48,302 bases of DNA from Escherichia phage vB_EcoD_Opt-719: the sequence record OL539451.1. The stretch is one strand, 5' to 3'. The translations under genes and the position numbers were made by a program. Positions within the stretch are counted from its first letter, which is position 1. Every line of letters begins with the position of its first letter. Shown here piece by piece: positions 18,564 through 41,536 of this stretch. The notes under the pieces were generated by a model that worked only from the letters and a program-made list of their open reading frames with translations, ran no database searches and had not been told where the DNA came from.

Positions 18564-18612
18564 TTAGTGTAGAATGGCACAAATGGTTAAACAAACAACG
18601 AGGTTATATGAT

Positions 18613-21600
18613 ATGGCCGATTTGCCAAAGATTTATGGAAGCAAGGGTGGTGGCAAGAAGCCACACACACCTGTGGAGCAAGAAGATAACCTGGTTTCAC
18701 TAAACAAGATTAAGGTGCTGCTGGCCGTTGCTGATGGTGAGGTTGATTCTAGCTTCTCACTTAAGGATGTTTACCTTGCTGACGTTCCAGTGCAGAACCA
18801 GGACAACTCATTCAACTATGAAGGTGTAACCGCTGAGTTTCGCCCAGGCACTCAATCTCAAGATTACATCGCCGGGCTAGACGGTGAGGCATCAGAGATT
18901 CAGGTTAGTCGTGAGATTAACAATGATACACCTTACATCATCGCAGTTAACAACAGTCAGCTTTCAGCAATCCGAGTCAAGCTGTTCTGGCCTCGACTCG
19001 TTAAGCAAGAAGAGAATGGAGATTTAAATGGCACAACATGTGAATATGCAATCGATTTATCAGTTAATGGCTCAGCGTACACTGAATATACCAGAGGCGT
19101 GGCTAACGGTAAAACTACAACAGGTTACGACCGCAGTATCAGGGTTAACTTACCAGCCGAGTTTAGCAGCGCTCTTGTTCGTATTAGGAAGTTAACGCCA
19201 GACTCAACAAGCAGCACACTGGTTAACGGAATGCAGATTACAACCTATCAGGAAGTAATCGACGCTAAGTTCCGCTACCCTCTTACAGCGCTTGTTTACG
19301 TTGAGTTCAGCTCCGACCTATTCCCCAATGGCATCCCAACGATAGCTATTAAGAAAAAGTGGAAGCTTATCCGCGTACCGACAAACTACAATCCAGAGAC
19401 AAGGACTTATAGCGGCACATGGGATGGTACCTTTAAGATGGCGTGGTCTGACAACCCGGCCTGGGTTTTATATGACCTTGTGGTTAGTCAGCGTTACGGA
19501 TTAGATCAGCGAGAACTTGGTGTAGAGATTGATAAATGGGGTCTGTATGAAGCTGCGCAATTCTGTGACCAGATGGTTCCTGATGGTAAGGGTGGAATGG
19601 AGCCGCGATATACTTGCAACGTTGTAATTCAGCAGAAGGTTGAAGCATACCAGCTTATTCGTGACATCTGTTCTATATTCCGCGGTTTAACCTTCTATGA
19701 TGGTGAGCAAATCGGGATTGTTGTAGACAGGCCGCGCCAGCCAAGTTACGTGTTCACCAATGATAACGTTGTTGATGGATTGTTTAACAGGACATTCTCT
19801 AGCGATAAGTCTCTTTACACGACTGCAAACGTTCAGTTTGATGACGTAGAGAATAACTATCAGCAAGATGTTGAACCAGTGTTCGACCTTGAAGCAACTC
19901 GCCGCTTTGGTTATAACCCTGTAGACCTGACCGCAATTGGATGCGTAAGGCGTAGTGAAGCTAACCGTCGAGGTCGCTGGTTGCTGAAAACAAACCTTCG
20001 AAGTGAAACGGTAACGTTCACAACTGGCCTCGAAGGGATGATTCCTATGATTGGTGATGTAATTGCTGTCAATGACCAGGCTTGGTCAAGCAACTACACA
20101 TTGAACCTTTCGGGTCGAATCGTTGAGGCTACTGGTCTGCAGGTTTTTGTTCCTTTCGCTATTGATGCGGACCCAGGCGACAGGATTTTAATCAACAAGC
20201 CCGATGGAAGCCCGGAGTACAGGACTATCGCTTCAGTATCTGCAGATAAGCTTACGCTTGAACTGAACACAGCATTCAGTTTCACGCCGCAGCCGGATAC
20301 GGTATTCGCAATCGATAAGCAGAATCTGGCGTTGCAGCAGTATGTGGTGACCGGGATTCAAAAAGCTAACACGGATGGAGAGGACTCATTCCAGTACAGC
20401 ATCACAGCTGTTCAGTATGATCCTAACAAGTACGATGAGATTGACTACGGAGTAAACATCGATGACAGGCCAACAAGCATCGTTGACCCTGACAGGATTT
20501 TGCCACCGCAGAACATCACCGTTACTAGCTACAGCAAGGTAGTGCAGGGCTTAAGCGTTGAGACGATGGTTATTGGTTACGACAAAGTGCAGTATGCGAA
20601 AACATACAACGTACAATGGCGTAAGAATAACGGAAACTGGATTAACGTTCCTGAGACGGCTAACACTGAAGTTGATATTGAAGGTATCTACGCTGGCATT
20701 TACGACGTCAGGGTTCGTGCTGTAACTGACCAAAAATCAGTATCGGCATGGTCAGAAATCACAACTGTTAGCCTCACTGGCAAAATTGGAGAACCATCTG
20801 CGCCGCCTGTAATTACGGCTTCTGATGATGAGGTTTTCGGAATTAGGGTTAAGTGGGGCTTCCCTACTGACTCAGCGGATACTGCGTACACCGAGCTTCA
20901 GCAGGTTCCTGATAATGGTGACGGTACATACAATCCAGAGAATGCATCACTGCTTACCCTGGTTCCTTATCCTCAGTACGAATACTGGCACACAACTTTA
21001 CCAGCAGGTAACGTGAGGTGGTACAGGGCGAGGATTATTGACAGGATAGGTAACGTATCTCCATGGACTGATTTTGTCAGGGGTATGGCATCTGATGATG
21101 TAAGTGCAATCATTGGCGACATCAAGGTTGATATCGAAAACTCTGATGGTTACAAGTATCTTCTCCAGAACGCCATTGATGCAAATACTGACATCCAGAA
21201 CCAGGCCGAAGCAATAATTGAGAACGCATTAGCAAACGATACTGACGTGCGCGTTATGAAGCGCGAGAATGGAGCAAGGAAGGCTGAATATCGCCAGGCT
21301 GTTAGTTTGATTGCTGATGAAACTCAGGCGCGTGTAAATGCTCTCACAGAACTTAAAGCGCAGATTGATGATGAGATTGTTGGTCAGATTACGACAATTG
21401 AAACTGCTTTAGCTACAGAGACCGAGGCAAGGGCTACTGCTGATACCGCTCTAAGCGCAAGGCTTGGTGATAACGAGGCGGCTTTGAATCAGAAGCTTGA
21501 CTCTTACGCCACGGTCGAAGGCGTTGGTGTTCAGTACGGCGTTAAGCTAGGTCTGAAGTACAATGGAGTTGAGTATGGCGCTGGCATGAGCATGGAGTTA

Positions 21601-21969
21601 ACTGGTAGTGGTGGAAATGTTCGCAGTCAGTTCATTTTCGACGCCAACAGATTTGCAATCAGTAACGGCATTAGTTCTGGTTCCGGTCAGTGGTCACTGC
21701 CTTTTGTTGTCGATAATAACCAGGTTTTCATTCAAAGCGCTGTGATACAGGACGGTTCAATCACTAACGCGAAGATTGGAGACGCAATTCAGTCTAACAA
21801 CTTTGTAGCAAACTCTGTTGGCTGGAGGCTTGATAAGGCTGGAACTTTCGAAAATAACGGTTCTACGCCTGGCGAGGGTAAAATGAAGCAAACTAACCAG
21901 ACAATTTCGGTTGCTGATGCTAACGGAAGGCTTCGTGTTCAGATTGGCCGTTTGACTGGAGTTTACTAA
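18613..21969 (+). CDS. central tail fibre / host specificity protein (J-like)
   Basis: ~1118 aa; N-terminus GSKGGGKKPHTPVEQEDNL resembles lambda J N-terminus; start ATG 18613 (track 18574). Confidence 0.8.
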   Translation: MADLPKIYGSKGGGKKPHTPVEQEDNLVSLNKIKVLLAVADGEVDSSFSLKDVYLADVPVQNQDNSFNYEGVTAEFRPGTQSQDYIAGLDGEASEIQVSREINNDTPYIIAVNNSQLSAIRVKLFWPRLVKQEENGDLNGTTCEYAIDLSVNGSAYTEYTRGVANGKTTTGYDRSIRVNLPAEFSSALVRIRKLTPDSTSSTLVNGMQITTYQEVIDAKFRYPLTALVYVEFSSDLFPNGIPTIAIKKKWKLIRVPTNYNPETRTYSGTWDGTFKMAWSDNPAWVLYDLVVSQRYGLDQRELGVEIDKWGLYEAAQFCDQMVPDGKGGMEPRYTCNVVIQQKVEAYQLIRDICSIFRGLTFYDGEQIGIVVDRPRQPSYVFTNDNVVDGLFNRTFSSDKSLYTTANVQFDDVENNYQQDVEPVFDLEATRRFGYNPVDLTAIGCVRRSEANRRGRWLLKTNLRSETVTFTTGLEGMIPMIGDVIAVNDQAWSSNYTLNLSGRIVEATGLQVFVPFAIDADPGDRILINKPDGSPEYRTIASVSADKLTLELNTAFSFTPQPDTVFAIDKQNLALQQYVVTGIQKANTDGEDSFQYSITAVQYDPNKYDEIDYGVNIDDRPTSIVDPDRILPPQNITVTSYSKVVQGLSVETMVIGYDKVQYAKTYNVQWRKNNGNWINVPETANTEVDIEGIYAGIYDVRVRAVTDQKSVSAWSEITTVSLTGKIGEPSAPPVITASDDEVFGIRVKWGFPTDSADTAYTELQQVPDNGDGTYNPENASLLTLVPYPQYEYWHTTLPAGNVRWYRARIIDRIGNVSPWTDFVRGMASDDVSAIIGDIKVDIENSDGYKYLLQNAIDANTDIQNQAEAIIENALANDTDVRVMKRENGARKAEYRQAVSLIADETQARVNALTELKAQIDDEIVGQITTIETALATETEARATADTALSARLGDNEAALNQKLDSYATVEGVGVQYGVKLGLKYNGVEYGAGMSMELTGSGGNVRSQFIFDANRFAISNGISSGSGQWSLPFVVDNNQVFIQSAVIQDGSITNAKIGDAIQSNNFVANSVGWRLDKAGTFENNGSTPGEGKMKQTNQTISVADANGRLRVQIGRLTGVY

Positions 21970-22016
21970 CTGATAGAATGGGCAAATGGAATTGCCCTTA
22001 TCAACAGGAGGAATTT

Positions 22017-22325
22017 ATGGCTGAGTATGGGATTGCTACATATGATGCAAATGGTAATTACAATAACTATGGGATTAAGCCAGTTACGGTTGTTGGCTTT
22101 GATTTCCTTTCCGCTGGCAATAATTCTTACTCGTTTTCTTACTCAATACCAGAAGGCACAAAGGTTGGATTCACTATTAGTCTGGATGATGGGGCGATAT
22201 CTGGACCAGCAAGGAGAATAGTGGCAAGTGGGAACACAATAACGATAACACCAACATCAACACCAGGACCTGGTGTTTACCCATCATCAAATTGCTACCT
22301 CATAGCTTATCTGGAGAATCAATAA
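22017..22325 (+). CDS. hypothetical tail-associated protein (102 aa)
   Basis: AGGAGG RBS; N-terminus MAEYGIATYDANGNY paralogous to next gene; follows J-like gene. Confidence 0.45.
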   Translation: MAEYGIATYDANGNYNNYGIKPVTVVGFDFLSAGNNSYSFSYSIPEGTKVGFTISLDDGAISGPARRIVASGNTITITPTSTPGPGVYPSSNCYLIAYLENQ

Positions 22326-23017
22326 TGGCTGATTACGGAGCTTTTATAGATGTAAATGGAAATCCATTCATAACGCCACTATCAACACCATTCGCACTTT
22401 ACTCAAAAGGAACAATCGCATCAGGTAATGTTAACAACACCCAGTATGCTGATAGATATGTTGACATTCCTCTCAATGTTCCAGTGATAGCTTTTTGCAA
22501 AACGACAAACACAAACAATGGTACAGCTTTGTCAGCATTCACATTTAGGGAGGGATCCAACATTGGAAAGATCTACTTTCAGGGTGTTAATCCAGCAAAT
22601 CAGGCGTTTGTTATGACGTACTACATATTTGCGATATTCCCACAGACTCTACCTGATTGGGGTATGGCTATATGGGATGCGCAGGGTAAATTGATACTTA
22701 CAAATGAAACAAAGGTTCTTAGCGACCTAGCAACAATTGGCACGCCAGGTTATCAATCTGGTGGTTTAAATATAGACGTAACATTGCAAGGAAGTTGGGC
22801 CGTGGTTCCAACAACCCTGGGGAATAGTCAGATACAAATAGGAACGCTACCAACTGGTCAGCCAGTTATAACAAATGCGACAGCTGGAACATCCTGCAGG
22901 TACAACGGAGTGCAGACAAGAATAAACGCGCAGTCAACACGTGGCTCTGGAAATGTGTTAAGCACAACAAATAACGGAAATGTAATAACAGCAATTAACA
23001 CATCAGCATACGACTAA
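22325..23017 (+). CDS. hypothetical tail-associated protein (230 aa), paralog of 22017..22325
   Basis: N-terminus MADYGAFIDVNGNPF; ATG overlaps upstream TAA (TAATG). Confidence 0.45.
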   Translation: MADYGAFIDVNGNPFITPLSTPFALYSKGTIASGNVNNTQYADRYVDIPLNVPVIAFCKTTNTNNGTALSAFTFREGSNIGKIYFQGVNPANQAFVMTYYIFAIFPQTLPDWGMAIWDAQGKLILTNETKVLSDLATIGTPGYQSGGLNIDVTLQGSWAVVPTTLGNSQIQIGTLPTGQPVITNATAGTSCRYNGVQTRINAQSTRGSGNVLSTTNNGNVITAINTSAYD

Positions 23018-23040
23018 GCCCCTTTCGGGGCTTTTTCTTT
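23017..23040. terminator. bidirectional rho-independent terminator
   Basis: hairpin AGCCCC-TTTC-GGGGCT with T-run; separates convergent plus structural genes and minus lipoprotein gene. Confidence 0.7.
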
Positions 23041-23041
23041 A

Positions 23042-23263
23042 TCAACCTCCACAATCGTGGTCTTTAAAATTCCGCTCAGAGACGTACTGAAACGAGAATG
23101 GATATCCGGCCCTAAGTAAAAACTCCTCACCGCGCTTCTGCGTGCCAAAAACATAAACAGAGTAACTCATTCCGCTTGACTCATAAATCGCCGTACAAGT
23201 GCGCTCCGGCATCGTAGAGCACCCGCCTAACGTCATTGCTGCGATAACGATTAATTTTTTCAT
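23042..23263 (-). CDS. small lipoprotein, candidate Cor-like superinfection-exclusion factor
   Basis: 73 aa from ATG 23263 (track GTG 23272); signal peptide MKKLIVIAAMTLGGC with lipobox LGGC; AAGGTG RBS; small lipoprotein next to tail genes. Confidence 0.45.
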   Translation of the reverse strand: MKKLIVIAAMTLGGCSTMPERTCTAIYESSGMSYSVYVFGTQKRGEEFLLRAGYPFSFQYVSERNFKDHDCGG

Positions 23264-23273
23264 CTCATTCACC

Positions 23274-23378
23274 TTAGAAACCGTTAAAGTTTGAAGCCAG
23301 CAGCAGAACCCAAACGAAGAAGCTGGTAGTTGCTACGCCGAAGATTGCAGAGATTAAGTTAGTGGTTAAGTTAGTCAT
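23274..23378 (-). CDS. hypothetical small membrane peptide (34 aa)
   Basis: MTNLTTNLISAIFGVATTSFFVWVLLLASNFNGF; AAGGA RBS; stop abuts lipoprotein start; same minus-strand operon. Confidence 0.3.
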   Translation of the reverse strand: MTNLTTNLISAIFGVATTSFFVWVLLLASNFNGF

Positions 23379-23444
23379 TTTGTATTCCTTAGTAAGTATG
23401 TTTCGTTTCGATGGAGTAACTATAGCAAAGGCTTCAGCGGTAGT

Positions 23445-23465
23445 CTTTAGCAAATCGTGCTATTT
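23445..23465 (-). promoter_or_regulatory. promoter-cassette motif copy (minus orientation)
   Basis: reverse complement AAATAGCACGATTTGCTAAAG followed on minus strand by TATAGT and CATCGAAACGAAAC leader toward the lipoprotein operon. Confidence 0.45.
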
Positions 23466-23820
23466 GATATACGCGTAACCGATGTAACTCGATGTATACA
23501 ATCTCATCCGCGGAAAATTGTATACGCTTTTTTACGCGCAGATACGCATTAGTTACATTTATAAATCCTTATATAATAAGGTTTTAGAGTAGTATTATTA
23601 TTATATATATTACTATGTATATCTTGTAACTACTCTCTATAGCTATGTTGGTATGTTTTTCTAAAAGACTATGTTTGATTTCCTGTTAAGGAGGAAATGC
23701 ATATAGATATAGATAGGGTGCAAAATTGGTGGATACATTGGTTACAAGAGTTACATTCAGCATCCATGCGGCCTAGAGACTAGCAAGGCGTATTTAGGTG
23801 CGTTTTACACCGATATACAA

Positions 23821-23840
23821 AATAGCACGATTAATCAAAA
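23821..23840 (+). promoter_or_regulatory. promoter-cassette motif variant
   Basis: AATAGCACGATTAATCAAAA with GGGTATAGTG ~20 bp downstream; upstream of Rha-like gene. Confidence 0.4.
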
Positions 23841-23928
23841 CGGCTGCTTCTTGATTGGGTATAGTGCACTCATCGGCAGCAATGGTGCTGCGTCTATCTA
23901 CCAAAAAATGGTAGATACAAATGAAATA

Positions 23929-23947
23929 GCTCCTCAACTTGAGGAGC
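23929..23947 (+). promoter_or_regulatory. perfect 19-bp palindrome GCTCCTCAAcTTGAGGAGC (operator or hairpin)
   Basis: 9-bp arms around one central base, ~20 bp upstream of Rha-like gene ATG; second inverted repeat ATCTACC-N7-GGTAGAT at 23896-23916. Confidence 0.4.
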
Positions 23948-23966
23948 AAGGATAAGAGAGAAGATA

Positions 23967-24593
23967 ATGAACTTAATCAATACCAAGAAAGAAATGACCA
24001 TGACGACAACTGAGATTGCTAAGATTGTTGGTCAGCGACACGATAACTTAATGAATGATGTTAAATCAATGTACCTTGAGTTGTATGGTGAAAATCATTC
24101 TCCTGAGATTCAGGAGATTAAAATTCACAACAACAGAAGCCAAAAAATTGCAATTCTTGATAAAAAACACACACTATGCCTTGCTGCAAAGTACAGCGCA
24201 AAGGTTAGAATGAACATGATCGAGAAGATTGAGAGCCTTGAGCAGGAAAACAAATTACTGAAAGAGCATATGGCTAAGATGGTTTCAATTGACGAGATCA
24301 AAGTTTATAAGATAGAAGCTGCGTCAGCAAAAGCTGCACAGCACAGAGCTGAAGATAACTATTACGCAATTGAGAAGTTCATGTTTAAGAACATGGATAA
24401 GTGCGGAAATCCTGCAGAACTTGATGAGCAATACTTCGATGTTAAATTCGAGTCAAATCGTTACCATGACTCTCAAGAGGTTGTTTACAAGTACCAGGCC
24501 CAGCTTGAGGTTGCTTGCGAGAAGTTAAAGGCCAAAGATGAGCTGATTGCTAATCTGGTAGACAAGAATAGCGAGATTCTTAAGTTGAAATGA
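23967..24593 (+). CDS. Rha-family-like phage regulatory protein
   Basis: N-terminal TTEIAKIVGQRHDNLMNDV resembles Rha-domain signature; coiled-coil-like C-terminal half. Confidence 0.5.
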   Translation: MNLINTKKEMTMTTTEIAKIVGQRHDNLMNDVKSMYLELYGENHSPEIQEIKIHNNRSQKIAILDKKHTLCLAAKYSAKVRMNMIEKIESLEQENKLLKEHMAKMVSIDEIKVYKIEAASAKAAQHRAEDNYYAIEKFMFKNMDKCGNPAELDEQYFDVKFESNRYHDSQEVVYKYQAQLEVACEKLKAKDELIANLVDKNSEILKLK

Positions 24594-24666
24594 TAGGCAA
24601 AACCAATTGGATAAACTTATCCACGGATGGCATAGTTAAATCACACAAACAAAGAGAGATATAGAA

Positions 24667-24861
24667 ATGGCATACTTCATTATTCAAGAGCGAAACAATC
24701 CGATTTTCGGCACGGTATACTACTGCGAGGATGGTTCCGGATACTGCGACCACAAAGCTGACGCCAAGAGATTCGATACTAAAGCTGAGGCAATGGAATG
24801 GGGCAGCATTAACGATGAGGAGCTGGGTGGAATTGTTAAGGTGATTAAGGTTAAGGAGTAA
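24667..24861 (+). CDS. hypothetical protein (64 aa)
   Basis: GAGAGA RBS; compact ORF between Rha-like and exonuclease genes. Confidence 0.4.
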   Translation: MAYFIIQERNNPIFGTVYYCEDGSGYCDHKADAKRFDTKAEAMEWGSINDEELGGIVKVIKVKE

Positions 24862-33691: not shown

Positions 33692-34080
33692 TGATTAAGG
33701 TATTTTACGATAAGACAAGCACGGACAAGGCCAAAGAGTTTGTACACCAGGTTAACTGTATCGCATGGGTTCGCCATAACCACCCTGAGATATTTGCATG
33801 GCACGTGAAGAATGAAGGCTTAAAGTCAATCGGCACTGCAGTGAAGGATAAGCAGGAGGGCGTAATCAAGGGAGTGTCGGATATATTACTGATCGGGCCA
33901 AAAGGATTTGGAGCAATAGAACTTAAGCGAGCAATAAAATCAGATAGCAAAGTTTCGAAGGAGCAAAAGGAGTTTCTTGAAAAGGTATCAGAAACAGGCG
34001 GTTACGCAGCAATCTGCTACGGATTCGAAATGTTTAAACTGGCAATTGAGGATTATCTATCAAATAGCACGAATTGCTAA
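33691..34080 (+). CDS. putative VRR-NUC-like nuclease
   Basis: 129 aa; PD-(D/E)XK-like core GVSDILLIGPKGFGAIELKR; ATG overlaps helicase stop (ATGA). Confidence 0.45.
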   Translation: MIKVFYDKTSTDKAKEFVHQVNCIAWVRHNHPEIFAWHVKNEGLKSIGTAVKDKQEGVIKGVSDILLIGPKGFGAIELKRAIKSDSKVSKEQKEFLEKVSETGGYAAICYGFEMFKLAIEDYLSNSTNC

Positions 34081-34146: not shown

Positions 34147-34470
34147 ATGAAAAAGTTAATTATCGCAACTATCCTGATGGCGGCAGCAAGTGTTAATGCA
34201 GACGCGAAAGCTAACAACTGTCATGACATCGTTCAGTACGCTTACAACCTTGCAGTTAACGAATGGGGCGCTAACAAAACTGATGTGGTTAATGCTAAAA
34301 CTGTCAGTCTCTACCTGGATACATGTGAAATTGCTATCAAATCACGAGGCACTTACACTAAAGATGAACTTACAGCTAAGTATGATTCAGTAAAAACAAG
34401 CACTAAATCAGAGATGGATGTTCAGGATATTGTAATCCTTGTATCTAGAATCTCTTACGATAAGGCATAA
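34147..34470 (+). CDS. secreted/periplasmic protein (107 aa), hypothetical
   Basis: Sec-type signal peptide MKKLIIATILMAAASVNA with AxA cleavage site; start ATG 34147 (track TTG 34096). Confidence 0.5.
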   Translation: MKKLIIATILMAAASVNADAKANNCHDIVQYAYNLAVNEWGANKTDVVNAKTVSLYLDTCEIAIKSRGTYTKDELTAKYDSVKTSTKSEMDVQDIVILVSRISYDKA

Positions 34471-36960: not shown

Positions 36961-37158
36961 ATGATTACAGAGATGATTTTAGTTGCAAGCCTGTCGTCTC
37001 CATTGGCATCTCATCAGTATTGTGAGCTTGGCAAAGAGATTTATCACGATGGAGTGGAAGTAAACACAGTTGTTGAGTGGCTAAATCACAGTACGATGAA
37101 CATTGATGATAAGAAGGTTGTCCTTGAGTGCTATCTGGTGGAGGCAAATAAAGTTTAA
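36961..37158 (+). CDS. hypothetical protein (65 aa)
   Basis: start ATG 36961 (track TTG 36904); GAGGAA RBS. Confidence 0.4.
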   Translation: MITEMILVASLSSPLASHQYCELGKEIYHDGVEVNTVVEWLNHSTMNIDDKKVVLECYLVEANKV

Positions 37159-37176
37159 ATAGCACGAATTGCTAAA
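37157..37176 (+). promoter_or_regulatory. promoter-cassette motif copy
   Basis: AAATAGCACGAATTGCTAAA; TATAGT and CATCGAAACAAACGAGAGGA leader downstream. Confidence 0.5.
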
Positions 37177-37234
37177 ACACAAATTAAAAGATTGGGTATA
37201 GTTACTCCATCGAAACAAACGAGAGGATACAAAT

Positions 37235-37420
37235 ATGGCTAAGTTCACACAATCAGATGCACAAATCGAAGTTAAAGATGTTGGTTTTGGTAAGGCATTC
37301 AAGATTGCGCAGGCGTACGGGTCTAGCGAAGAAGATGTGAAAGTTGACACTATTAACCTTACTGCTAAGAATGCACGTGAGATCGCTTATGCAATCCTTG
37401 CAGCACTTGGAGAAAAATGA
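37235..37420 (+). CDS. hypothetical protein (61 aa)
   Basis: GAGAGGA RBS; first cistron after promoter cassette. Confidence 0.45.
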   Translation: MAKFTQSDAQIEVKDVGFGKAFKIAQAYGSSEEDVKVDTINLTAKNAREIAYAILAALGEK

Positions 37421-37421
37421 A

Positions 37422-37595
37422 ATGACTAAATTATTTTGCGTAATCAACAAATCAAAAACTCTGCCGTTCACTGTAAACAATCCGTATAGCGCTGAGTATC
37501 AGGGTGAAGGAAACTACAAGATTTATGGCGATGACATGACATGGATTTTTGCGCCAATCGATGGAGCTTTGTTGGAATTCATTATCGCAGACTAA
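37422..37595 (+). CDS. hypothetical protein (57 aa)
   Basis: ATG 2 nt after upstream TGA; same frame as track ORF 37344..37595. Confidence 0.35.
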   Translation: MTKLFCVINKSKTLPFTVNNPYSAEYQGEGNYKIYGDDMTWIFAPIDGALLEFIIAD

Positions 37596-41452: not shown

Positions 41453-41517
41453 TATTACTTTCCTTTTATGCGTGTCATTTCAGTGATTTCAATATACATC
41501 ATAAGCCCCGAAGGGCT

Positions 41518-41536
41518 TTAACAATTAGTGCTATTT
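41518..41536 (-). promoter_or_regulatory. promoter-cassette motif copy (minus orientation) with adjacent hairpin
   Basis: reverse complement AAATAGCACTAATTGTTAAA followed by hairpin GCCC-CGAA-GGGC. Confidence 0.45.

Follow-up and report, generated by a model that had tools for sequence, protein, structure and literature searches.

A conserved promoter-proximal micropeptide gene, probably not a dedicated partner of Cor, precedes the cor gene of Escherichia phage vB_EcoD_Opt-719

Our analysis of the DNA of Escherichia phage vB_EcoD_Opt-719 (OL539451.1; the whole stretch of 48,302 nt is called the window below) points to a bicistronic minus-strand unit, convergent with the tail-tip genes, whose effector would be the exclusion lipoprotein Cor. 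The first gene of this unit encodes a 34-aa micropeptide that, judged from its conservation, is a genuine, selected and predicted single-pass membrane peptide. From the distribution of the two genes among phages, we conclude that the micropeptide does not serve as a dedicated partner of Cor. We propose instead that it is an independent, promoter-proximal accessory gene, slotted in here by recombination among repeated promoter/leader cassettes. The promoter of the unit would be one of about ten phage-specific copies of this cassette, the others of which head recombination and other non-structural blocks. We hold this account as a whole, with its bicistronic unit, Cor as effector and an independent micropeptide, to be highly probable. 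The identity of Cor was already known, as the gene is annotated in identical GenBank genomes; what is new beyond existing annotation is the correct gene model of the micropeptide, its family assignment and its promoter-proximal mobility.

The phage is assigned to the Drexlerviridae, subfamily Rogunavirinae. In a megablast search, the 2.7 kb at 22000-24700 are 100% identical over the full query to Escherichia phage vB_EcoD_PhleaSolo (OL539447), Escherichia phage vB_EcoD_Sadiya (OL539467) and Klebsiella phage vB_KpnD_Opt-79 (OL539453), all of them also Drexlerviridae of the Rogunavirinae. Among classified phages, Shigella phage Sd1 (Wilsonroadvirus) comes nearest, with 88% identity over 56% of the same query. 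A genome announcement (PMC9119101) mentions both PhleaSolo and Sadiya and gives Escherichia as the isolation host of the latter. The host labels of the three identical records are Escherichia coli, Serratia marcescens and Klebsiella pneumoniae, and tblastn also finds a T1-like cor in several records labelled ‘Campylobacter phage’. These conflicting labels indicate that host metadata are unreliable for these phages.

The second gene of the unit, cor (23042..23263, minus), runs from an ATG at 23263 to a TGA at 23044-23042 and encodes a 73-aa lipoprotein precursor, as the initial annotation had described. Its signal peptide, MKKLIVIAAMTLGGC, has an L-G-G-C lipobox with serine at +2, and the precursor reads MKKLIVIAAMTLGG|C15-S16, with Cys15 as the predicted lipobox cysteine and Ser16 as the sorting residue. 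Across 21 aligned homologues G14 and C15 are invariant, and so are C23 and C71 in the mature part. The product matches the NCBIfam equivalog NF047972, ‘phage exclusion lipoprotein Cor’, with 46.1 bits (cutoff 31, E=3.7e-12), and over its full length PHROG 1119, ‘Cor superinfection exclusion protein’, with E=3.3e-27; Pfam gives no match. It is 74% identical to T1 Cor. By tblastn, homologues of cor occur in 230 phage records, T1 included, with 50-77% identity in many Tunavirinae, Tempevirinae and Dhillonvirus phages and 29-35% identity to the lambdoid, ES18, HK and mEp Cor proteins. Size, lipobox and the two conserved cysteines of the mature part are common to the present protein and to Cor of T1, phi80, N15, HK022 and mEp167. 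Thus a small lipoprotein that had been put forward as a Cor-type exclusion protein, with a search against the Cor/Llp families as the proposed check, proves strongly homologous to Cor in that search; on this homology it is Cor, in agreement with the label ‘superinfection exclusion protein’ in the identical genomes.

The genomic setting points the same way, and the suggestion that location near the tail genes fits a Cor protein is borne out. A gpJ-like tail-tip gene (18574-21969) is followed by a phrog_557 gene (21978..22325, plus; 76% identical to T1 ORF32), a phrog_425 gene (22325..23017, plus; GenBank start ATG 22325; 73% identical to T1 ORF31) and then cor; in T1, ORF32 and ORF31 are likewise the two genes that precede cor after gpJ. 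The phrog_425 product is a probable receptor-binding protein. The cor gene thus closes a three-gene cassette downstream of gpJ, which published work links to the use of FhuA (PMC13164509 section 2.5; PMC8594841; bioRxiv 10.64898/2026.04.02.716166), and FhuA is therefore the predicted receptor of the present phage. This use of cor and the two preceding genes is helpful for host-range prediction but is not new.

Between the convergent tail-tip/receptor-binding genes and cor lies a shared GC-rich hairpin (23016..23033; -19.2 kcal/mol, z=-3.3), which had been read as a bidirectional terminator. The hairpin is indeed stable and is followed by a T-run in the plus direction, but not in the minus direction, where AGUCGUAUG comes next. 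From this layout we take it to be an intrinsic terminator for plus-strand transcripts and, for the cor transcript, a hairpin without a U-tract. T1 resembles the present phage in the convergent orientation of cor and in the shared hairpin, and an equivalent terminator is annotated there. In lambdoid phages, by contrast, cor is co-directional with the tail genes.

How Cor would act can be approached through Llp (PDB 8A60, 7QJF), a small lipoprotein of the outer membrane encoded by the virulent FhuA-dependent siphovirus T5. According to the Llp-FhuA structure, binding shifts loops in such a way that the receptor-binding protein of the phage can no longer attach (PMC9586334). In the same work Cor proteins are described as about 20% identical to Llp, with a disulphide in common and a likely identical mode of action; the two are regarded as working alike (PMC9586334, PMC13164509), and AlphaFold modelling of KanT1 Cor with FhuA was done earlier (PMC13164509). 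In our hands, a profile of 21 Cor sequences finds Llp (8a60_B) as its best match in the PDB, with E=0.018 and 18.5 bits, and aligns C23, the post-lipobox cysteine of Cor, with an Llp cysteine. The AlphaFold2 model of Cor (pLDDT 80) is all-beta. In Foldseek it matches 8a60_B with a TM score of 0.62 normalised to Llp (rmsd 3.4 Å, 62 columns, 24% identity); at E=0.14 and rank 10 this match is not significant, but it is the sole full-length fold match. The ranks above Llp are held by Tudor/chromo-like small barrels, which we took as generic small beta-barrel matches. The likeness to Llp (TM 0.54-0.62, 24% identity) is thus marginal in both sequence and fold, and the genome architecture differs, since llp adjoins pb5. 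That Cor works like Llp is nevertheless well supported by analogy.

We envisage that the Cor precursor would be acylated at Cys15 and, with serine at +2, end up in the outer membrane, in its inner leaflet. There it would bind FhuA and exclude superinfecting FhuA-dependent phages, and it would spare progeny from being lost on debris. Our literature search returned no experiment on the present phage or on T1 Cor itself, and the exclusion phenotype predicted here is carried over from homologues, namely lambdoid Cor and T5 Llp.

The promoter of the unit belongs to a repeated cassette. Its upstream element (23446..23465, minus), AAATAGCACGATTTGCTAAA, contains the inverted repeat TAGCA-N5-TGCTA, which is centred about 43 nt before the putative transcription start. 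In an alignment of ten cassettes, an extended -10, TGcTATAGT, falls at 23427-23419 (minus) and an invariant A at 23412, where transcription of the cor unit would start; the conserved leader CATCGAAACGAAAC follows. Each cassette thus consists of AAATAGCACGAaTTGCTAAA, 21-22 nt, a TATAGT-like -10 and the conserved leader, with a fixed distance to the -10 and invariant T42, A43, T47 and A54. The pattern AAATAGCACGAnTTGCTAAA has 9 matches in the window at no more than two mismatches, as against none in 100 shuffles. A tenth, more divergent copy at 23820 points in the opposite direction and heads a rha-like gene; the others lie at 2250, 23446-23465 (minus, the present one), 26261, 34062, 37157, 41517-41536 (minus), 43865, 45517 and 46522. 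The initial annotation had recognised a minus-strand promoter cassette at 23445-23465. The repeated element is real, but these positions cover only its upstream half, as the -10 and the start lie further downstream, albeit within the range 23042-23465 given for the whole finding.

The spacing from TTGCTA to the -10 is 22-23 nt across the cassettes, which is non-canonical, and 23 nt at the cor unit. This spacing explains why a generic sigma-70 scan did not call the cor-unit promoter. In its geometry, the cassette resembles an activator-dependent promoter. Cassette and leader are conserved across Drexlerviridae genera, and the same promoter element stands directly before cor in the T1-like relatives aaroes and W011D. 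Because this promoter class is common to recombination and other non-structural genes, we infer that the cor unit is expressed outside the late structural programme.

Several side observations concern other copies of the cassette. An AT-rich non-coding gap of 500 bp (23466-23966) separates the divergent cor and rha-like units. It includes repeats of GTTAC, a run of (ATA/TAA) around 23590-23620 and, on the minus strand at 23929-23947, a hairpin that resembles a terminator; in AKS96 the equivalent region carries an annotated 48-aa ORF. The copy at 34062 drives a gene at 34147-34470 for a protein of about 107 aa with a cleavable non-lipoprotein signal peptide, MKKLIIATILMAAASVNA, which predicts a secreted or periplasmic product. 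The copy at 37157 opens a pre-lysis slot (37157-37595) that in other genera is a site of the micropeptide. Here, that slot holds a 61-aa soluble protein (37235-37420, phrog_7411) and a conserved 58-aa protein (37419-37595, phrog_4788), followed by holin, endolysin and u-spanin genes.

The micropeptide gene (23274..23378, minus) encodes MTNLTTNLISAIFGVATTSFFVWVLLLASNFNGF, a 34-aa product with a single predicted helix, between an ATG at 23378 and a TAA at 23276-23274; the initial annotation had placed it correctly. A ribosome-binding site, AAGGA (23386..23390, minus), can be read from the sequence 8 nt upstream of the ATG and is kept in AKS96, phiA2-1 and Sd1. Dozens of ORFs of similar size occur in the window, so length alone does not set this one beyond chance; it is conservation, in the form of homologues and dN/dS, that marks it as a real gene. 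By tblastn, full-length homologues occur in about 140 phage records. Same-sized homologues with 67-91% identity are found in about 20 E. coli and Shigella Drexlerviridae, and weaker matches (41-53%) in more than 100 Klebsiella Webervirus, Enterobacter, Pantoea and Citrobacter phages. Pairwise dN/dS is 0.1-0.4, often with saturated dS, which argues that the peptide itself is under selection.

Members of this unnamed Drexlerviridae family are 28-38 aa long, with invariant M1, G14, W23, L27, A28, F31, G33 and F34-stop. Their consensus is ...G.(A/V)(V/T)TGF.(V/L)WV(L/I).LA(S/G)NF(N/K)GF, with the C-terminal ending ...WV.xLA(S/G)NF(N/K)GF. Most have a Lys-rich N-terminus, which suggests an N-in/C-out topology. 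Searches of Pfam, PHROG and NCBIfam and a profile search of the PDB gave no relative. When 1.84 billion representatives were searched exhaustively with a profile, the matches were confined to 5 short clusters of phage-like type, and the motif was seen in no bacterial protein and in no larger one. The literature, searched also for a small membrane peptide upstream of cor, yielded no description of it.

In GenBank, the same reading frame is given for PhleaSolo and Sadiya as a 59-aa ‘putative lipoprotein’ (23274-23453, minus; SADIYA_30 / PHLEASOLO_29), and the frame is indeed open from the TTG at 23453. The chance that this model is right is vanishingly small. The proposed start coincides with the TTG in the promoter element TTGCTAAA, lies upstream of the -10 and has no ribosome-binding site, and homologues elsewhere begin at an ATG and are 28-38 aa long. 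Cysteine is absent from both readings, that of 34 aa and that of 59 aa, so that no lipobox is possible. Used as a query, the 59-aa form finds only 4 close relatives. Evidently, the label was taken over from C119 and AKS96, which share a junction with these phages and encode a true lipoprotein beyond it. We therefore reject the 59-aa model as wrong, the true gene being that of the 34-aa ATG-start peptide. In Sd1, Sf12, IME253, ZL19 and phiA2-1 the micropeptide is unannotated.

The two genes of the unit are separated by 10 nt, and the Shine-Dalgarno sequence of cor, AAGGTGA (23269..23275, minus), as read from the sequence, overlaps the stop codon of the micro-ORF, an overlap that probably couples the translation of both genes. 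It would also suit a micro-ORF that is merely a leader, loading ribosomes onto cor or regulating it, with a peptide that has no function of its own, as would the place of the micro-ORF, always first after the promoter and 0-10 nt from the next gene or overlapping it. This explanation is very unlikely, however, as the amino-acid sequence has been retained despite saturation at synonymous sites (dN/dS 0.1-0.4), and eight positions are invariant across genera in four downstream contexts. Moreover, the RNA of leader plus micro-ORF is less structured than shuffled sequence (z=+1.8): it contains no structure that would mask the ribosome-binding site of cor, and no attenuator-like element was found in it.

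Extracting the contexts of the family shows that the micropeptide gene always comes first after a copy of the promoter cassette and that the next gene, at a spacing of -4 to 10 nt in every context, varies. This next gene is cor in the present phage, Sd1, Sf12 and JulesPiccard; a gene for a weakly Cor-like 61-aa lipoprotein in phiA2-1 and IME253; a Dam methylase gene in the Webervirus phages Sushi, KL and PHB17; and, upstream of the lysis genes, a gene for a soluble 58-66-aa protein in BrunoManser, SRT8, Ec_L1 and AAS23. The present phage has a single micropeptide copy, with no second one in the window. Conversely, cor stands without a preceding peptide gene in T1, aaroes, W011D, the Dhillonvirus phage bob and lambdoid HK225, and in the members of the Drexlerviridae among these phages the promoter cassette abuts cor directly. 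No micropeptide copy was found in T1 or in AKS96 19405-45746, the half with the non-structural genes. A weak T1 match to the micropeptide (E=0.02, wrong strand) was dismissed, as it fell to E=1 with a better profile. Hence the micropeptide and cor do not co-occur consistently across phages, whichever of the two is taken as the starting point. The proposal that micropeptide and lipoprotein form a two-gene exclusion module finds no support in this comparison: the peptide has unrelated downstream genes, and most cor genes lack the peptide, including those of T1, Tempevirinae, Dhillonvirus and lambdoid phages, unlike those of the present phage, Sd1, Sf12 and JulesPiccard.

Could the peptide still be an inner-membrane partner of Cor-type lipoproteins? 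In such a two-layered arrangement the peptide might act at the inner membrane, against the passage of DNA or against receptor function that depends on TonB-ExbBD, while Cor blocks FhuA at the outer membrane. Small inner-membrane exclusion proteins exist, such as HK97 gp15 and T4 Imm, and adsorption of T1 and phi80 requires TonB and an energised membrane. The micropeptide and cor are co-transcribed and tightly spaced, and the conserved G-x-x-x-T-G, W23 and the C-terminal motif suggest helix-helix binding. In addition, the peptide gene precedes two Cor-like lipoproteins, one in the present phage, Sd1, Sf12 and JulesPiccard and the other in phiA2-1 and IME253, and thus two different exclusion-type lipoproteins with a signal-peptide junction in common, in both Rogunavirinae and Braunvirinae; this leaves some room for a functional link. 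We nevertheless consider such a partnership improbable. Members of the family also stand before Dam methylase in Webervirus and, in other genera, before a soluble protein of 58-66 aa close to the lysis genes; Cor works in characterised lambdoid hosts without any such peptide, and the cor genes of T1, Tempevirinae and Dhillonvirus do without it; and the micropeptide has no homology to known exclusion proteins in Pfam, PHROG, NCBIfam or the PDB. HK97 gp15 and T4 Imm are short phage membrane proteins expressed apart from structural genes and offer an analogy for the micropeptide only, as no sequence relationship to any described family was detected.

A broader variant, that the micropeptide founds a new family of early phage inner-membrane effectors, we regard as unlikely. 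The conserved face formed by G-x-x-x-T-G, the tryptophan and LA(S/G)NF(N/K)GF would then bind a conserved machine of the Enterobacterales inner membrane, such as TonB-ExbBD or a DNA-entry route. If this were true, recruitment of the peptide beside Cor-type lipoproteins in Rogunavirinae and Braunvirinae would amount to a second, inner-membrane layer of exclusion. On either version, a Cor-linked inner-membrane role for the micropeptide is doubtful, and we favour the reading of an independent accessory gene.

Junctions in related genomes fit a mosaic origin of the unit. Rogue1-like phages share more than 90% DNA identity with the present phage only from 23368 upward: in AKS96 and C119, identity spans the promoter, the leader, the ribosome-binding site and ATG ACT AAC TT and then ends. 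Beyond the divergence point, both encode an unrelated true lipoprotein of the Rtp45 slot. In the comparison with phiA2-1, identity spans the micro-ORF and the signal peptide of the lipoprotein and stops just past the lipobox cysteine.

The Rtp45-type, LptD-blocking lipoprotein of Rtp and Rogue1-like phages (PHROG 4281) thus occupies the same genomic slot as cor does here, and in AKS96 and C119 it has promoter, leader, ribosome-binding site and first three codons in common with the present unit at more than 90% DNA identity. This lipoprotein is periplasmic and inactivates the receptor used by its own phage (bioRxiv 10.1101/2025.07.07.663478), a logic like that of Cor. The two differ in that their sequences are unrelated, that the Rtp45-type protein targets LptD, that its gene is not preceded by one for a micropeptide, and that this gene shares a transcript with the gene of the receptor-binding protein.

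A separate observation concerns the unannotated 61-aa lipoprotein of phiA2-1 (OR861626, 3107-3292; MKKLIVITAMILAGC...), whose gene directly follows that of the micropeptide. Its likeness to Cor is weak (phrog_1119, E=7e-5), and its gene lies beside a different receptor-binding locus (phrog_4062). The phage phiA2-1 was isolated on an fhuA deletion strain. This lipoprotein is probably the exclusion protein for a non-FhuA receptor.

Taken together, these observations describe a conserved, unnamed and often unannotated family of micropeptides that moves between promoter-proximal slots in these phages. The repeated promoter/leader cassette that heads these slots appears to be a substrate for recombination through which exclusion and receptor modules are swapped.
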